Assembly (NCBI GenBank): GCA_040767085.1
Contig: JAXGPF010000004.1
Span: 64,001-128,000, forward strand
DNA length: 64,000 nt
Direction of reading: 5' to 3'
Origin: Kiritimatiellia bacterium
GTDB lineage: Bacteria > Verrucomicrobiota > Kiritimatiellia > JAAZAB01
The position numbers were made by a program, and so were the translations under genes. Of the stretch, positions 17,618 through 23,381 are shown piece by piece. The stretch's first letter is position 1. Every line of letters starts with the position of its first letter. The notes beneath the pieces were generated by a model. The model made no database searches, was not told the origin of the DNA, and saw nothing but the letters and a program-made list of their open reading frames with translations.

Positions 17618-18679
17618 ATGCTGGAATTCAAACCGGACGCGGACAAGGTTTTTGAGCGGCTGACGGCCTGGTGGAACGGCGAGGTGCTCGACCGGGCGAA
17701 CATTGCCATCGTGGCGCCGAAAAAGGGAGCGTTATTAAAAAACATCCCGGCGCCGGCCACGCTGGAAAAACAGTGGACTGACATTGATTATGTCATCGAA
17801 AAACACTTCGCCCGCATGGCCGCCACCGCCTACATGGGCGATGCCTTGCCGTGCATGCGCGCGGAGCTGGGTCCAAATTTCCTCGCCGCCACCCTGGGTT
17901 GCAAGCTGAATTTTCTGCCCGATACCACCTGGACCGAACCGGCCATTGCCGACTGGCAATCGTTTCAGGGCTTGCCCGATTACCATGCCAGCCGTTGGTA
18001 CCAACTCACCGTCAAAATGACGGAGCGGGTTGCCGCCGAAGCCGAAGGGCGCTGCATCGCCCAGATGCCGGACTTGCATTGCGGCGGCGATGCGGTGGCG
18101 GCATTGCGCGGCAATGAGCCGTTTTTGCTCGATTTTTATGACAACCCCGGCCGCCTGCGCCAAACGCTGGGCATGGTTGACGATATTGCCTGCGAGATGG
18201 TGGATACATTTTACCGGCTCACCACCATGCACGGCCAGCCTGGCAGCACCGGGTTCCTGGTTTGGGGGCCGGGCAAAACTTTCCCGCTGCAGGATGACAC
18301 CCTGGCGCTGGTATCGCCCGCCGCCGCGCGCGAATTCCTGTTGCCCGGACTGCTCAAGCAGGCGCGCCATGTGGATCACGCCATGCTGCATCTGGATGGG
18401 CCCGCGGCGCTGGACAAGCTGGATATGCTGCTTGAGTCTCCCGAAATTCACGGCATTCAATGGCAGCCCGGCGCTGCGCATCGCCCCAAAATCCAATGGA
18501 TACCGCTGATGCAACGCATCCTGAAAGCGGGCAAGCTGCTTTATACCGGCTGCACCGCCGCGGAAGTCGAGCCGCTCCTGACGGCCTTGCCGAGCCGTGG
18601 TCTGCGCCTCAGCTTGACCGCGCGCAGCGAGGAGGAAGGCGAACATATTTTGAAGCTGGCGGCGAAATTGACGCATTAG
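17618..18679 (+). CDS. Uroporphyrinogen decarboxylase/MtaA-like (corrinoid methyltransferase superfamily) protein
   Basis: PDLHCGGDAVAALRG, LQDD...VSP...EF, HLDG, IQWQPG. Confidence 0.7.
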   Translation: MLEFKPDADKVFERLTAWWNGEVLDRANIAIVAPKKGALLKNIPAPATLEKQWTDIDYVIEKHFARMAATAYMGDALPCMRAELGPNFLAATLGCKLNFLPDTTWTEPAIADWQSFQGLPDYHASRWYQLTVKMTERVAAEAEGRCIAQMPDLHCGGDAVAALRGNEPFLLDFYDNPGRLRQTLGMVDDIACEMVDTFYRLTTMHGQPGSTGFLVWGPGKTFPLQDDTLALVSPAAAREFLLPGLLKQARHVDHAMLHLDGPAALDKLDMLLESPEIHGIQWQPGAAHRPKIQWIPLMQRILKAGKLLYTGCTAAEVEPLLTALPSRGLRLSLTARSEEEGEHILKLAAKLTH

Positions 18680-18737
18680 TGCCTTAAACCACAGTAACTG
18701 CCCAAAAATTGGAGGGCAGTTACTGTAGTTTAAGGCA
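18680..18737. repeat. 24-bp inverted repeat with 10-nt loop
   Basis: TGCCTTAAACCACAGTAACTGCCC (18680-18703) vs GGGCAGTTACTGTAGTTTAAGGCA (18714-18737), 1 mismatch. Confidence 0.9.
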
Positions 18738-19049
18738 TGGTGAAGGGGAAGGCGACAGGTAAAGGTGCAGTTAGCCCGCAAGCGGGCCAGATGATTCCGG
18801 ATTGGTTCCGGATCAAATTACACATTCACCACCTCACAGGAGGATGGCAAGCTTGTAGCCTGAACCGGCCGGCGGTATTCGGCTGCTTGGGCTTGGCGGG
18901 GCTGTGTCCGCCGAAGCCTTGGCGCAGGAGGATGGCCGCAGGCCGAAATGTAATATCCGCTCTTGGCGTTCCTGGCGTCCTGGCGGTGAAATGTGCCTCG
19001 CCAATAAGCCTGATTGAATTTAGAAAACAGGAAAGCAGGAAAATATTTT

Positions 19050-19943
19050 ATGCCAGGCAAAAAGAGCATATTTCACTTCAAATCAGGTAAATGGTATTTG
19101 CAAGCTGCGCCGGATGACGGCGCGCGCATTACCCGCCTGGCCTATGACGGATTCGATTTGCTGACTCCGGCGCCGTCCCGGTTCCGGCCGCCTAAACGGG
19201 ACTACGGCCTTTACGAAACGCGGCCTGTTGGCGGATATGACGATTGTTTTCCCAGCGTGGAAACCTGCCGGTTTCCCGGCCGGAACTGGCGAGTGCCCGA
19301 CCATGGCGAATTATGCTGGCTGCCATGGACGGTGCAACCGGCACGCGGCGGCCTGCGGTTTACCGTTCAATCGCAAAGGCTGCCGCTGACTTTCAGCCGT
19401 ACCATGATATTTTCTGAAAACCGGCTGACCTGGCAATTCGAGGTCAAGTCTGGGGCACGCGGGGCGCTTCCCTTCCAGCACATCATGCATCCGCTGATGC
19501 CGCTGGATCAAATTTACATTGCCGGATCGAAATTGCCGCCTTGCGGAATTATTTATGATGAAACCAGTAAAAAGCCTTTAAAACGGGTGCAAGCCGCGCG
19601 ATCCGGCAGCGCCGGCATACGCGCTATTCTGGAATCAATCAAGCCCGGCGAATTCAGGATGCTGATTTTAAGAAACGTAAAATCTGGAAATTTCATCCTG
19701 GCTTTTAAGAACGGGATATGTTTAAAAGTAAAATTCCCCCGAAAATATTTTAATTCACTGGGCATCTGGTGGAATAATCGCGGATATCCGGATGAGCCGG
19801 GCATTCGACGCTGCGAATGCGCATTCGAGCCCATCCCGGGACCAGCCAGTTCCCTGGCGCGCTCCGTCCGCTCCGGCGATGACATGATCGTTCTACCAGG
19901 ACAAAACCTGGCATGGAATGTTGTATGGGAAATAACAAGATAA
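19050..19943 (+). CDS. Galactose mutarotase/aldose epimerase-like protein
   Basis: GARIT.L, GGYDDCFPSV, DHGELCWLPW, H.MHP, CAFEP. Confidence 0.75.
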   Translation: MPGKKSIFHFKSGKWYLQAAPDDGARITRLAYDGFDLLTPAPSRFRPPKRDYGLYETRPVGGYDDCFPSVETCRFPGRNWRVPDHGELCWLPWTVQPARGGLRFTVQSQRLPLTFSRTMIFSENRLTWQFEVKSGARGALPFQHIMHPLMPLDQIYIAGSKLPPCGIIYDETSKKPLKRVQAARSGSAGIRAILESIKPGEFRMLILRNVKSGNFILAFKNGICLKVKFPRKYFNSLGIWWNNRGYPDEPGIRRCECAFEPIPGPASSLARSVRSGDDMIVLPGQNLAWNVVWEITR

Positions 19944-20257
19944 GGTTTTAAGGTGTTACGTTTTAAGGTGTTAAGGCCCAGTCAACTTTTCTTGGTGTAT
20001 TATACAAGGTTTTAAGGTGTTACGTTTTAAGGTGTTAAGGCCCAGTCATCTTTCCACTGGTGTATCATACAAGGTTTTAAGGTGTTACGTTTTAAGGTGT
20101 TAAGGCCCAGTCATCTTTCCTTGGTGTATTATACAAGGTTTTAAGGTGTTACGTTTTAAGGTGTTAAGGCCCAGTCATCTTTCCTTGGTGTATTATACAA
20201 GGTTTTAAGGTGTTACGTTTTAAGGTGTTAAGGCCCAGTCATCTTTCCACTGGTGTA
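19942..20257 (+). repeat. Tandem array of five 64-65 bp units
   Basis: Units start at 19942, 20006, 20071, 20135, 20199; invariant core AAGGTTTTAAGGTGTTACGTTTTAAGGTGTTAAGGCCCAGTCA. Confidence 0.97.
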
Positions 20258-20259
20258 AA

Positions 20260-20610
20260 ATGAGTTATCAATCATTTGAAGATTTGGAGGTTTGGAAAAA
20301 TTCATGCCGACTGGCTGTCAATATTTATAAAGAGATGAAAGATTGCAAAGATTATGGATTGAAAGACCAAATGACCCGCGCCGCGGTTTCAATCCCATCA
20401 AATATTGCCGAAGGTGCTGAAAGGAACAGTCGGCAGGATTTTATCCGTTTTTTACATATAGCCAAAAGTTCGGCTGGCGAGCTGCGAACACAGATTTATA
20501 TTGCCGAACAAATTCAAATAATATCAAAGGAAACAGCCGATGATCTGGTGGGCAAATTAAAGAAAATATCCGCCATGCTTCACAACCTAATTAAATCCTT
20601 AACACCCTAA
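20260..20610 (+). CDS. Four-helix bundle protein (23S rRNA IVS protein/Avd-like family)
   Basis: SFEDLEVWK...DQMTRAAVSIPSNIAEG.ER...FLHIAKSSAGELRTQ; AT-rich. Confidence 0.93.
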   Translation: MSYQSFEDLEVWKNSCRLAVNIYKEMKDCKDYGLKDQMTRAAVSIPSNIAEGAERNSRQDFIRFLHIAKSSAGELRTQIYIAEQIQIISKETADDLVGKLKKISAMLHNLIKSLTP

Positions 20611-20696
20611 CACCCTAACACCTTAACACCCTAAAACCCTAACACCTTAACACCCTAACACCCTAAAACCTTAAAACCTTATCCCCCTATCCCCCT
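20597..20696 (+). repeat. Tandem 8-mer array CCYTAAMA x10 plus CCYTATCC-type degenerate copies
   Basis: Direct read: ccttaaca ccctaaca ccctaaca ccttaaca ccctaaaa ccctaaca ccttaaca ccctaaca ccctaaaa ccttaaaa ccttatcc ccctatcc ccct-ATG. Confidence 0.97.
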
Positions 20697-21611
20697 ATGA
20701 CTTCTATTAATGAAATCGTGCGCCAGGCCTGGCGCGAAGGATGGACTGTCCCGGGATTCAACATCCCCTACCTGCCCATGATGCAGCCGGTCGTCAATGC
20801 CCTGCGTGACTGCAACAGCTTCGGCTTGATCATGGTGGCCCGGCTGGAGTGGATGAAATTCCAGGCCGGCAGCATCGAAGCCGTGCGGGATGAGTATGCC
20901 CGCGTCGGCGATCCGCGCCATACCCGGCTGCACCTGGATCACGTGCCGGTGATTGATGAAGACCGCCAGCGGGTGGATTACCTGGCCGACATCCGCCGCG
21001 CCATCAAGGCGGGGTACAACTCGGTCATGGTGGACGGCTCGCGTCTGCCGCTGGCTGGAAATGCCGCCTGCGCCAAAAAAGTGGTCGAACTGGCGCATGC
21101 CGCCGGCGTGGCCGTCGAAGCCGAACTGGGCGCCATCATGGGGCATGAAGCGGGGCCGCTGCCTCCGTACGATGAATTGTTCGAGTCCGGGCAAGGCTTC
21201 ACCGATCCGGATGAAGCCCGCCGCTTCGTGGCAAGCACCGGCGTGGACTGGCTGTCCGTGGCCGTGGGCAGCGTCCATGGCGCCATCAGCGTCGCCACGC
21301 GGGATCGTCCGAAAGTGGCGGCGCGGCTGAACATCCGGCACCTGGCTCAAGTGCGCCAGGCGGCGGACGTGCCGCTGGTGCTGCACGGCGGCACGGGCAT
21401 CCGCAAGGAATACATCATGGATGCCATCCGCAACGGTATCGCCAAGATCAACGTGGCCACAGCCTTGCGCCAGCCTTACGAAAAACACCTGCCGGAATCA
21501 CCGGAGAAGGCCTTGGATGCCGTTTATGCGGCAGCCTGCAAGGTCATCCGCGAAGACCTGGAAATTGCCGGCACCGCGGAACGACTGGTTGCGTCTCCAG
21601 GTGGCCACTGA
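20697..21611 (+). CDS. Class II ketose-bisphosphate aldolase
   Basis: LHLDH, SVMVDGS, VEAELG, VAVGSVHG, LVLHGGTG, KINVAT. Confidence 0.92.
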   Translation: MTSINEIVRQAWREGWTVPGFNIPYLPMMQPVVNALRDCNSFGLIMVARLEWMKFQAGSIEAVRDEYARVGDPRHTRLHLDHVPVIDEDRQRVDYLADIRRAIKAGYNSVMVDGSRLPLAGNAACAKKVVELAHAAGVAVEAELGAIMGHEAGPLPPYDELFESGQGFTDPDEARRFVASTGVDWLSVAVGSVHGAISVATRDRPKVAARLNIRHLAQVRQAADVPLVLHGGTGIRKEYIMDAIRNGIAKINVATALRQPYEKHLPESPEKALDAVYAAACKVIREDLEIAGTAERLVASPGGH

Positions 21612-21866
21612 AATAAAGCAAACGAATATCTCTCACAAAGACACCAAGGCGCAAAGAAGATGAGGATAATTTACCACGGAGCAGGATGAGCGGATGGAGG
21701 GATTAGCTGACCGCTAAGCGTTTACCGGCTGGCGCGGCAATGCTCAACGATCTTATAATTTTGTGTATTTTTGCGGCTTATACTCTCTCTGATCCGGGTA
21801 CTCAAGCGTAGCGGGTGGTCCAAAATTCAAATGAGTTGCGCGCGCCGGCAATGAGGAGAATAATTC

Positions 21867-23381
21867 ATGAATTTATACATGGGATTGGACATTGGCACCA
21901 GCGGCTGCAAGGCGGCGGTATTCGATGCCGAAGGCCGGTTGCAGGCCTTGGCCCGCCGGACCTACGCCCTGCATTTCACCCCTGACGGCGGAGCGGAGTT
22001 GGATGCCGCCGCGGTCATGCAAGCATGCCGGGCGGCCGTCGCCGAAGCGGCGCGCGGCAGGACGGCGAATATCCGGGCCCTGGCCGTATCGAGCCAGGGG
22101 GAAGCTTTTACCCCGCTTGACGCGGATGGGCAGCCGTTGTGTCCGGCCATGGTTTCTTCCGACACCCGCGCGGCTGGCGAGGTGGCGCGGGAACTGCCGG
22201 GCATGGACCAGGCAAGGTTATATGCAATCACCGGCCATACCCCCCACCCCATGTTCACCCTCTACAAAATGCTCTGGCTGCGCGCCAACCGGCCGGGAAT
22301 CTGGCAAAGCGCCGCCAGGTTTCTGTGCTTTGAGGATTTGCTGCACCATCAGCTCGGACTTGATCCCGCCATCAGCTGGCCGCTGGCCGGGCGCACCATG
22401 ATGTTCGATGTCCGGAAGCATGCCTGGAGCGCGCCGATCCTGGATTTGGCCGGATTGACGCCGGAGCAACTCGCCCGGCCCATGCAATCCGGCGCCATCG
22501 TCGGCGCCGTGAATGACAAGCTAGCCGCCGGCTGGGGCTTGCCGCCCGGCGTACTCGTCGCCGCCGGCGGCCATGACCAACCCTGCTCCGCGCTGGGCGC
22601 AGGAGCGACCGAATCCGGCTCGGCCATGTATGCCACCGGCACGGTGGATTGCATTACCCCCGCTTTTGCCAAACCGGTCTTCAGCGCCAGCCTCATGCGC
22701 GCGAATTTATGTACTTACGATCATGCCGCGCCAGGATTATACGCCACGATCGCCGTCAACCTGACTGGCGGCAATGCCCTGCAATGGTTTCATGACGAAT
22801 TCGGCCACCCCGAACGGGCCGCCGCCCGCGCCGGCGGCCGGGACGCCTACGAATTGTTGCTGGAAACCGCGGCGGCATCCTCATCGTCATTGCTGGCGCT
22901 GCCATATCTGGCGCCTGCCGGCACACCGTATTTTGACACGGTAACACCCGGCGCAGTGATGGGATTGCGCCTGACCACCAAGCGCGGCGACATCCTGCGC
23001 GCGCTGCTGGAAGGATTGGCGCTGGAAATGCGCCTGAATCTCGAAATCCTGGCGGAGGCCGGCGTTCCGGTCGAAAACCTGCGCGCCGTCGGCGGCGGCG
23101 CCCGTTCGGACTGGTGGAACCAACTCAAGGCGGATGCGGTCAACCGGCCGGTGATCGTCCCGGATGTGACCGAGGCCGGCTGCCTGGGCGCAGCCATGCT
23201 GGCCTGCGCCGCGCATACCGGCGCCGATACAGCCGCGCTGGCCAAATCCTGGGTGCGCCCCCGCAAGGAGTTCGCGCCGCGCCAGGACGCCGCGGCATTC
23301 TATACCGCCCGCTACGCGGCCTACCGCAACCTTTATCCCGCCCTGCGCGATTTTACCCGCCAGCAGAAGCTTGATCAGTAA
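21867..23381 (+). CDS. FGGY family carbohydrate kinase
   Basis: GLDIGTSGCKA, GGHDQ, GGGARS, EAGCLGAA. Confidence 0.92.
   Translation: MNLYMGLDIGTSGCKAAVFDAEGRLQALARRTYALHFTPDGGAELDAAAVMQACRAAVAEAARGRTANIRALAVSSQGEAFTPLDADGQPLCPAMVSSDTRAAGEVARELPGMDQARLYAITGHTPHPMFTLYKMLWLRANRPGIWQSAARFLCFEDLLHHQLGLDPAISWPLAGRTMMFDVRKHAWSAPILDLAGLTPEQLARPMQSGAIVGAVNDKLAAGWGLPPGVLVAAGGHDQPCSALGAGATESGSAMYATGTVDCITPAFAKPVFSASLMRANLCTYDHAAPGLYATIAVNLTGGNALQWFHDEFGHPERAAARAGGRDAYELLLETAAASSSSLLALPYLAPAGTPYFDTVTPGAVMGLRLTTKRGDILRALLEGLALEMRLNLEILAEAGVPVENLRAVGGGARSDWWNQLKADAVNRPVIVPDVTEAGCLGAAMLACAAHTGADTAALAKSWVRPRKEFAPRQDAAAFYTARYAAYRNLYPALRDFTRQQKLDQ

Follow-up and report, generated by a model that had tools for sequence, protein, structure and literature searches.

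A four-helix-bundle gene cassette of intervening-sequence type at an operon junction in a Kiritimatiellia bacterium: widespread, and apparently undescribed outside rRNA

The PF05635 family of four-helix-bundle proteins was first found inside ribosomal-RNA intervening sequences (IVSs), and to our knowledge both the function of the "23S rRNA IVS protein" and the origin of those IVSs that bear an open reading frame (ORF) have been open questions since the 1990s. The subject of this report is a member of this family encoded within an AT-rich insert at positions 19939-20697 of a 64,000-nt stretch of DNA (the window; positions 64,001 to 128,000 of contig JAXGPF010000004.1, assembly GCA_040767085.1) from a Kiritimatiellia bacterium. 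The insert lies between two genes of an operon, its protein gene is bracketed by complementary arrays of short words, and it is read here, with a probability of roughly 0.6, as a selfish, optional gene cassette that has the same build as the ORF-bearing 23S rRNA IVSs and is sited at an operon junction. Cassettes of this type are widespread and, in a non-rRNA setting, apparently undescribed; the full-text literature open to searching, which left out subscription papers and early studies such as that of Ralph and McClelland (1993), held no description of PF05635 cassettes outside rRNA.

The closest described system is the IVS of Coxiella burnetii, for which the accessible text of PMC4990558 gives a length of 428-444 nt, a 28-bp terminal stem, excision by RNase III, tandem heptamers (GACAGAT) that lie just before the start of S23p in three or four copies depending on the strain, decay of the ORF, and doubt that its protein is made at all; the same text cites further ORF-bearing IVSs in Leptospira, Brucella and Xanthomonas, and quotes the Xanthomonas protein as being a homopentameric toroid. 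The cassette described here has in common with the 23S rRNA IVS its protein family (PF05635, "S23p"), and with the Coxiella IVS, as portrayed there, its size class (a median of 489 bp in the 114 cassettes defined below), a terminal stem (30-nt arms matching at 83%, the outer 15 nt perfectly), variable tandem words before the ORF (octamer blocks here, heptamers there), and the decay of some copies. It differs in lying between protein-coding operon genes, and not in helix 45 of 23S rRNA, and in having its upstream arm amplified as five 64-bp units; moreover, excision by RNase III has been demonstrated for the rRNA IVS, whereas for the present cassette it is proposed by analogy. The shared build suggests a known kind of element placed in a new setting, and not a wholly new kind. 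The initial annotation of the window had named it the best candidate for an undescribed system, which holds for the setting, on which no paper was found, but not for the design, which the Coxiella 23S IVS already displays in the available part of PMC4990558.

Other described systems invite comparison. Avd, the accessory protein of diversity-generating retroelements (DGRs; structure 4dwl and the ribonucleoprotein structures 8ub7 and 8ube), has the same four-helix-bundle fold, a likeness to PF05635 that is remarked in the accessible part of PMC10053308, but sequence identity is about 10%, and neither a reverse transcriptase nor a template or variable repeat lies beside the window's gene. In REPIN/RAYT systems, as presented in the accessible parts of PMC3116915 and PMC3337134, a single-copy gene is likewise flanked by an inverted, hairpin-forming short repeat that is also scattered genome-wide; however, PF05635 is not a Y1 (IS200/IS605-like) transposase, the repeats are tandem 7-8-nt words here and one 20-25-nt palindrome there, and the dependence of scattered arrays on the gene is partly contradicted here by GTGTTCR arrays that occur without it. 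Finally, the accessible text of PMC4679880 reports intergenic heptamer arrays (TAACTGA) with no known mechanism in Beggiatoaceae, Cyanobacteria and Bacteroidetes, which resemble those described here in being tandem 7-nt intergenic words, mostly placed just before start codons and patchy across phyla, but for which that text draws no link to inverted partners or to PF05635.

The insert, its paired flanks and its protein

The insert spans the interval from the upstream stop codon to the ATG of the aldolase gene. Its GC content is 0.37-0.43 within the segment, compared with 0.58-0.72 in the flanks (39% for the cassette as a whole and 61% for the genome), while GC skew runs from +0.2 to +0.33 on the upstream side and reaches -0.6 on the downstream side. 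Tandem arrays were mapped with Tandem Repeats Finder (TRF) and families were assigned by profile search against Pfam and NCBIfam, yielding the following features.

19014..19943, plus strand: upstream operon gene, 309 amino acids, from the ORF list; its last codons and TAA (19941-19943) form the left edge of the insert
19939..19968, plus strand: outer left arm (inverted pair I1, the outermost stem when the segment is folded at minimum free energy); perfect inverted complementarity between its first 15 nt and 20669-20683
19942..20257, plus strand: 4.9 tandem copies of a 64-bp unit (TRF period 64, 96% matches, score 579); the last unit reaches the start codon
19942-19976, 20006-20040, 20071-20105, 20135-20169 and 20199-20233, plus strand: octamer blocks of the 64-bp units, by TRF
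20260..20610, plus strand: four-helix-bundle gene, 116 amino acids (PF05635 / TIGR02436 / NF008912); its last codons and TAA lie within the downstream array
20597..20697, plus strand: about 12 C-rich octamers (CCYTAAMA-type) that form the downstream array and are reverse-complementary to the upstream words (inverted pairs I1-I25)
20654..20683, plus strand: outer right arm, partner of 19939-19968 (inverted pair I1)
20697..21611, plus strand: class II ketose-bisphosphate aldolase gene (PF01116, E 2.6e-61); its ATG abuts the array

The coordinates and complementary repeats given in the initial annotation were confirmed: TRF starts the first array at 19941/19942, overlapping the upstream TAA, and ends the downstream one (20600-20697, period 8, 12.2 copies of TAACACCC, 86% matches) at the A of the aldolase ATG (20697), while 51 inverted pairs join the two sides, the longest linking 19939-19968 to 20654-20683. 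Its description of the upstream side as a plain array of 8-mers has to be revised, since each 64-bp unit is composed of a G-rich block of about 35 nt (4.5 octamers, GGTKTTARGG-type words) and a 29-nt leader that is unique to this locus in G000, the genome holding the window (G001, G002, G003 and G004 are congeners, of the same genus). The label of "epimerase" attached to the upstream ORF found no backing either, as no Pfam or NCBIfam family matched its 309-residue product; orthologues occur in three congeners (63-75% amino acid identity), and the C-terminus differs in the empty-site genome G004. The aldolase matched NCBIfam aldolase families, each below its equivalog cut-off. Consensus scans detected no sigma-70-like promoter inside the 64-bp unit and no terminator-like site in 18600-21900, an Rfam scan of 19000-21700 gave no match, and no target-site duplication is visible at the ends of the cassette. 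Because the cassette is found in three genomes, and metagenome contigs from several studies contain it too, a chance or assembly artefact is ruled out.

The pairing of the two flanks exceeds chance. Folded as RNA, the whole segment reaches -215.2 kcal/mol, compared with -181.8 +/- 6.3 kcal/mol in 20 shuffles (z -5.3), and each of the five octamer blocks is predicted to pair with the downstream array over about 30 bp at -39.1 kcal/mol, compared with -16 +/- 2.5 kcal/mol in 200 shuffles (z about -9). In the predicted ensemble, 72% of the downstream array is paired with upstream units, chiefly units 1, 3 and 5 simultaneously, the 100-nt 3' array being long enough by prediction to pair with three blocks at once. 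The proposal of the initial annotation that the flanks could pair and loop out the ORF is supported at the level of prediction.

The 116-residue protein matches Pfam PF05635 with 126.5 bits (cut-off 33.8, E 6e-37), TIGR02436 with 124.6 bits (cut-off 24), NF008912 with 166.4 bits (cut-off 124), and the Protein Data Bank entry 2gsc with an E-value of 1e-17. Its AlphaFold2 model consists of four helices (predicted local distance difference test score 96.7) and superposes on 2gsc and 2rld with template-modelling (TM) scores of 0.90 and 0.82, respectively, and on the Avd structures 4dwl and 8ub7 with TM scores of 0.78-0.79. The solved relatives 2gsc and 2rld are deposited with five chains each, and by analogy with them the window's protein would also form a homopentameric ring. 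Among 31 diverse sequences, Q37, S44, E51 and E74 never vary and R40 and N48 hardly do; the strongly conserved polar motifs S-x3-N-I-A-E-G and G-S-x2-E resemble a binding or active site. The possibility of a DGR was considered and rejected, since no reverse transcriptase lies near either cassette of G000 (a single RVT_1 match was found, on contig C22) and the window's copy has sugar-metabolism genes as neighbours.

Gene and arms as an optional, travelling unit

Within the genus, the cassette is optional at the junction between the ORF labelled epimerase and the aldolase gene, being present in some congeners and absent from another. In G004, whose aldolase is 81% identical in amino acids, a plain spacer of about 70 nt takes its place in an operon that is otherwise the same; in G002 the cassette is present, its upstream units being longer and three in number and its downstream array about 17 octamers long; in G003, where the four-helix-bundle gene is frameshifted by the loss of one base, two units and about three octamers are found; and G001 has no aldolase orthologue. 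With five upstream units in G000, three in G002 and two in G003, repeat numbers change quickly, as slippage would produce. Identities at this junction are as follows.

Four-helix-bundle gene: nucleotide identity 94%, third positions 87-90%
Aldolase gene: nucleotide identity 86%, third positions 69-71%
Upstream gene: nucleotide identity 77-78%, third positions 65-67%

The higher identity of the cassette gene fits a more recent common origin than that of its flanks, to which selection on the sequence itself may also contribute. In G002 (locus L005, 2900-3170, minus strand), every upstream unit carries a full local hairpin consisting of G-rich words, a CCCC loop and C-rich words; the 3' half of this hairpin is missing from the window's 64-bp units.

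A profile search of G000 identified exactly two PF05635 genes. The second cassette (contig C25:253677-254254, minus strand; about 1320-1960 of locus L002) lies between cpaF-like and tadB-like genes and displays the same layout with different words, GTGTTCR upstream and YGAACAC downstream, ending at the next ATG. The same junction holds a cassette in G001 as well, where the downstream array extends to about 35 heptamers, whereas in G004 it is a plain spacer of 35 nt; in G003 the spacer includes a small palindrome, which in G002 stands at either end of a gene-less hairpin of another word family. These differing inserts indicate that elements of this class turn over at one site.

Of 41 related genomes, 39 encode PF05635; a single genome has as many as 17 matches, and some matches contain internal stops. 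The arms were scored by the local complementarity of the two 160-nt stretches that flank the gene, with 300 control gene flanks from G000 (99th percentile, score 13) and 1047 non-cognate pairs (95th percentile) serving as controls. Of 91 relatives' loci, three were dropped for short flanks; among the 88 scored, 63 exceeded the 99th percentile of the control flanks and 72 the 95th percentile of the non-cognate pairs. The other-phyla sample consisted of the best 80 loci of a species-wide genome collection, of which 74 were scored (two lacked a profile hit and four had short flanks), and 51 of these passed the same 99th-percentile threshold; they belong to Verrucomicrobia, Bacteroidota, Gammaproteobacteria, Planctomycetes, Cyanobacteria, Clostridia and others. 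A cruder first duplex test with mononucleotide shuffles (z <= -3 in 19 of 28 loci) was superseded by this alignment test with gene-flank controls. The layout is also present, annotated only as "four helix bundle protein", in the complete record of plasmid pNsp_c of Nostoc sp. ATCC 53789, and Bacteroides thetaiotaomicron carries a member of the family. A tblastn search of phage records at E 1e-5 gave no match.

The 114 positive loci form the set in which arm length, period, cassette size, polarity and mismatches were assessed. The median arm is 30 nt, and the words repeat every 7 nt in 56 loci, every 8 nt in 12 and with another period in six, the remaining 40 having no clear period. The words are specific to each locus, and yet the two arms of each locus match each other. 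These figures bear on the reading of the window's gene as an ordinary small gene whose untranslated regions hold slippage-prone simple repeats, complementary only incidentally. Short tandem repeats do arise easily, and the 40 arms that lack a clear period would suit such an origin; control flanks, however, reach a score of 13 in 1% of cases, as opposed to 72% of the relatives' loci and 69% of those from other phyla, and incidental repeats would not explain why paired arms match while words differ from locus to locus. The control-flank comparisons led to the rejection of this reading, which is considered very improbable indeed.

Gene and arm words travel together into unrelated sites. Among 32 pairs of cassettes in different contexts with at least 70% protein identity, 75% share arm 6-mers, a figure that falls to about 1% below 45% identity, and within one protein clade the arm words are variations on a common core. 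A cassette of the window's type (73% amino acid identity, same GGTKTTARGG words) is found in another genus before a pseudopilin-like gene (L056), and genome G013 harbors at different sites two copies, L063 on contig C16 and L037 on contig C153, with 92.6% identity over 434 nt. One of the G013 copies has on either side a 14-nt direct repeat in which the ribosome-binding region and the ATG of the downstream gene are contained; in a search for its empty site, the downstream flank of this copy matched no orthologous site in 30 relatives of G013, the only matches outside G013 being two repeat-derived ones of 32-36 nt in G018. Two further cassettes have flanking direct repeats of 9 and 8 nt. Such repeats are no commoner than in the control (5 of 114 loci, compared with 25 of 1134 non-cognate pairs), and target-site duplication as a general feature is unsupported.

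The surroundings of the cassettes can be described for 103 loci, in which both neighbours share the cassette's orientation in 59 cases and the downstream neighbour does so in 82, the arm ending at a median of 21 nt before the ATG. The share of fully co-oriented loci is about that of ordinary genes, and is therefore not counted as evidence of co-transcription. The neighbouring genes themselves are unrelated between loci, with a sugar operon at one, Tad pilus genes at another, a pseudopilin gene at a third, and so on. In 103 of the 114 positive loci it is the upstream arm that is G-rich (G>C), and this fixed polarity relative to the gene suggests that the arms act on one particular strand, the transcript being the simplest case.

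These observations can also be read as the signature of a regulatory module that serves the host, in which the protein would regulate its own expression through the G-rich leader repeats and the stem, or its slippage-prone length, would tune the downstream gene. The placement of the arms just ahead of a mostly co-directional downstream gene, the position of the G-rich arm on the 5' side of the cassette gene, and the variation of repeat number between species would all agree with such a module. Co-directional neighbours are, however, expected of any bacterial gene; the neighbours have nothing in common from locus to locus; the site is empty in a congener with an otherwise identical operon; and copies decay, as shown by the frameshift in G003 and by stops inside several matches. 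A regulatory role for the host is, on balance, improbable.

RNA, DNA and the scattered arrays

If the cassette is a selfish element of the IVS type, it would be co-transcribed with its operon, and in the transcript the G-rich 5' blocks would pair with the C-rich 3' array to form imperfect duplexes of about 30 bp. Since the arms are periodic, pairing could take place in many registers, and the stem would survive insertions and deletions. By analogy with the rRNA IVSs, the RNase III of the host would then cut the arm duplexes, freeing the cassette RNA and separating the cistron before it from the one after it. One RNase III is encoded in G000, and arms of about 30 bp would be suited to this enzyme. 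The protein, Avd-like and pentameric by analogy, probably binds nucleic acid belonging to the element and serves the element's upkeep or spread.

Several results run counter to this proposal. Significant arms are lacking in 25 of the 88 relatives' loci and 23 of the 74 from other phyla, and 10 of 103 cassettes are antisense to both neighbours, which implies that a cassette need not be co-transcribed with an operon. Of 165 examined loci, none lies inside a 23S gene, and the 23S gene of G000 is uninterrupted, with no IVS. Over the 114 loci, arm mismatches of the G.U type are no more numerous than those of the A.C type (99 vs 110; 67 vs 47 in the 63 relatives' loci alone, p 0.075), and consequently nothing marks the pairing as one of RNA instead of DNA, although this comparison carries no information, probably because word variants in both arms differ at A/G positions. 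In the public runs, all four of which offer contigs only, breaking at the repeats, RNA-library coverage is limited to contigs X19 (20409-20638) and X20 (20391-20609), that is, to 20391-20638 in the 3' half of the gene, where carry-over of DNA is possible, and neither contig gives a sign of transcription, RNA ends or joints. Last, arrays of the same word families are found without the gene at many places, and a role confined to RNA leaves them unexplained. The interpretation offered in the initial annotation is supported in part: it stands with respect to pairing, optionality and fold, and to the lack of a transposase beside the cassette (ORF list and Pfam). Its suggested check for flanking inverted arrays at other PF05635 loci found them at the second copy in G000 and at most of the scored loci of relatives and other phyla; the mismatch test gave its RNA-level pairing no support.

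The gene-less arrays were surveyed in the five related genomes. G000 contains 137 AT-containing arrays with a period of 7-8 that belong to few word families, 24 of which have an inverted partner within 600 bp, and the window's words are also part of a mosaic intergenic repeat present in about 26-40 copies. One such mosaic (C2:12320-12480) is a series of arrays of GTTTTAAGG, GAACAC, TTGCCCC and CACGAAG words, including words common to the arms of both cassettes. Counts of three words in a row are as follows; reversed-pattern controls gave no hits in any of the five genomes.

Three GGTKTTAR words: G000 95, G001 0, G002 32, G003 16, G004 0 hits
Three GTGTTCR words: G000 62, G001 477, G002 32, G003 20, G004 0 hits

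The GGTKTTAR hits are confined to exactly the three congeners that carry the window's cassette (G000, G002, G003), while the only genomes in which the cognate gene for the GTGTTCR words turned up are G000 and G001; two further families of arrays in G000, of AAAGGGGC (12) and AATTCAG (8) words, have cognate genes that were seen only in other genomes. In this set of five related genomes, too small for a statistical test, arrays and cognate genes thus tend to co-occur, yet arrays can exist without the gene.

A number of side observations concern these arrays. Long solitary heptamer arrays of GTGTTCG/GGTGTTC words are present in G000 at C6:41583-41797 (30.7 copies) and C26:83813-83971 (22.7 copies). 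Gene-less hairpins of the AATTCAG family (G000 C22:298481-298633 and C25:47922-48052; about 1290-1500 of L193) are bounded by the palindrome TTTCAAAAC-N4-GTTTTGAAA, of which G000 has 13 copies, 8 of them adjoining arrays, while the reversed control has none; a lone palindrome is found in G003 where G002 carries a hairpin. In two DNA metagenome runs, the window's downstream array (20597-20681) is joined to many different flanks at a far higher summed contig depth, of up to 486, which indicates that its words are present at many other places or in other organisms of the community.

The scattered arrays lend themselves to an explanation at the level of DNA, in the manner of REPIN/RAYT, whereby arms and gene-less arrays would be sites of DNA hairpins or slipped strands, the protein their trans-acting partner, and the scattered arrays and gene-less hairpins non-autonomous derivatives. 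The restriction of GGTKTTAR arrays to the cassette-bearing congeners, with none in G001, G004 or the reversed control, is what such a partnership would produce, as is the presence of 137 arrays in a genome with only two PF05635 genes; gene-less hairpins at the very junction that holds the second cassette, mismatches without a G.U bias, and the three copies with flanking direct repeats of 8-14 nt agree with it as well. The three array-bearing congeners may, however, simply be one clade, GTGTTCR arrays persist in G002 and G003 where the cognate gene was not found, and the AAAGGGGC and AATTCAG arrays of G000 likewise lack a cognate gene at home. Moreover, nuclease or recombinase activity is not known for PF05635, target-site duplication is not general, and the fixed polarity of the arms favors a strand-specific role. 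A DNA-level element of this kind is judged unlikely.

A more speculative proposal, rated quite unlikely, is that the pentamer is a trans-acting reader of arrays of 7-8-nt words, which would bind tandem words on single-stranded nucleic acid at approximately one word per subunit (the arms hold about 4-5 words) and be responsible for the origin, spreading or maintenance of its own arms, as well as of the gene-less hairpins and arrays, in a REPIN/RAYT-like partnership with a protein that is not a transposase. If this were true, the orphan "IVS protein" family and the unexplained bacterial heptamer arrays would both be accounted for, and rRNA IVSs would be one special landing site.

Implications for the family

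The reading of the cassette as a selfish element of the IVS type at operon junctions has consequences for annotation, as the entries in public databases give no more than the name "four helix bundle protein", with no element marked. If most members of the family prove to be stem-flanked cassettes at ordinary junctions, the rRNA cases would be the exception and the element a widespread mobile unit, and the question would become testable in cultivable carriers, such as the one that holds the Nostoc plasmid locus.

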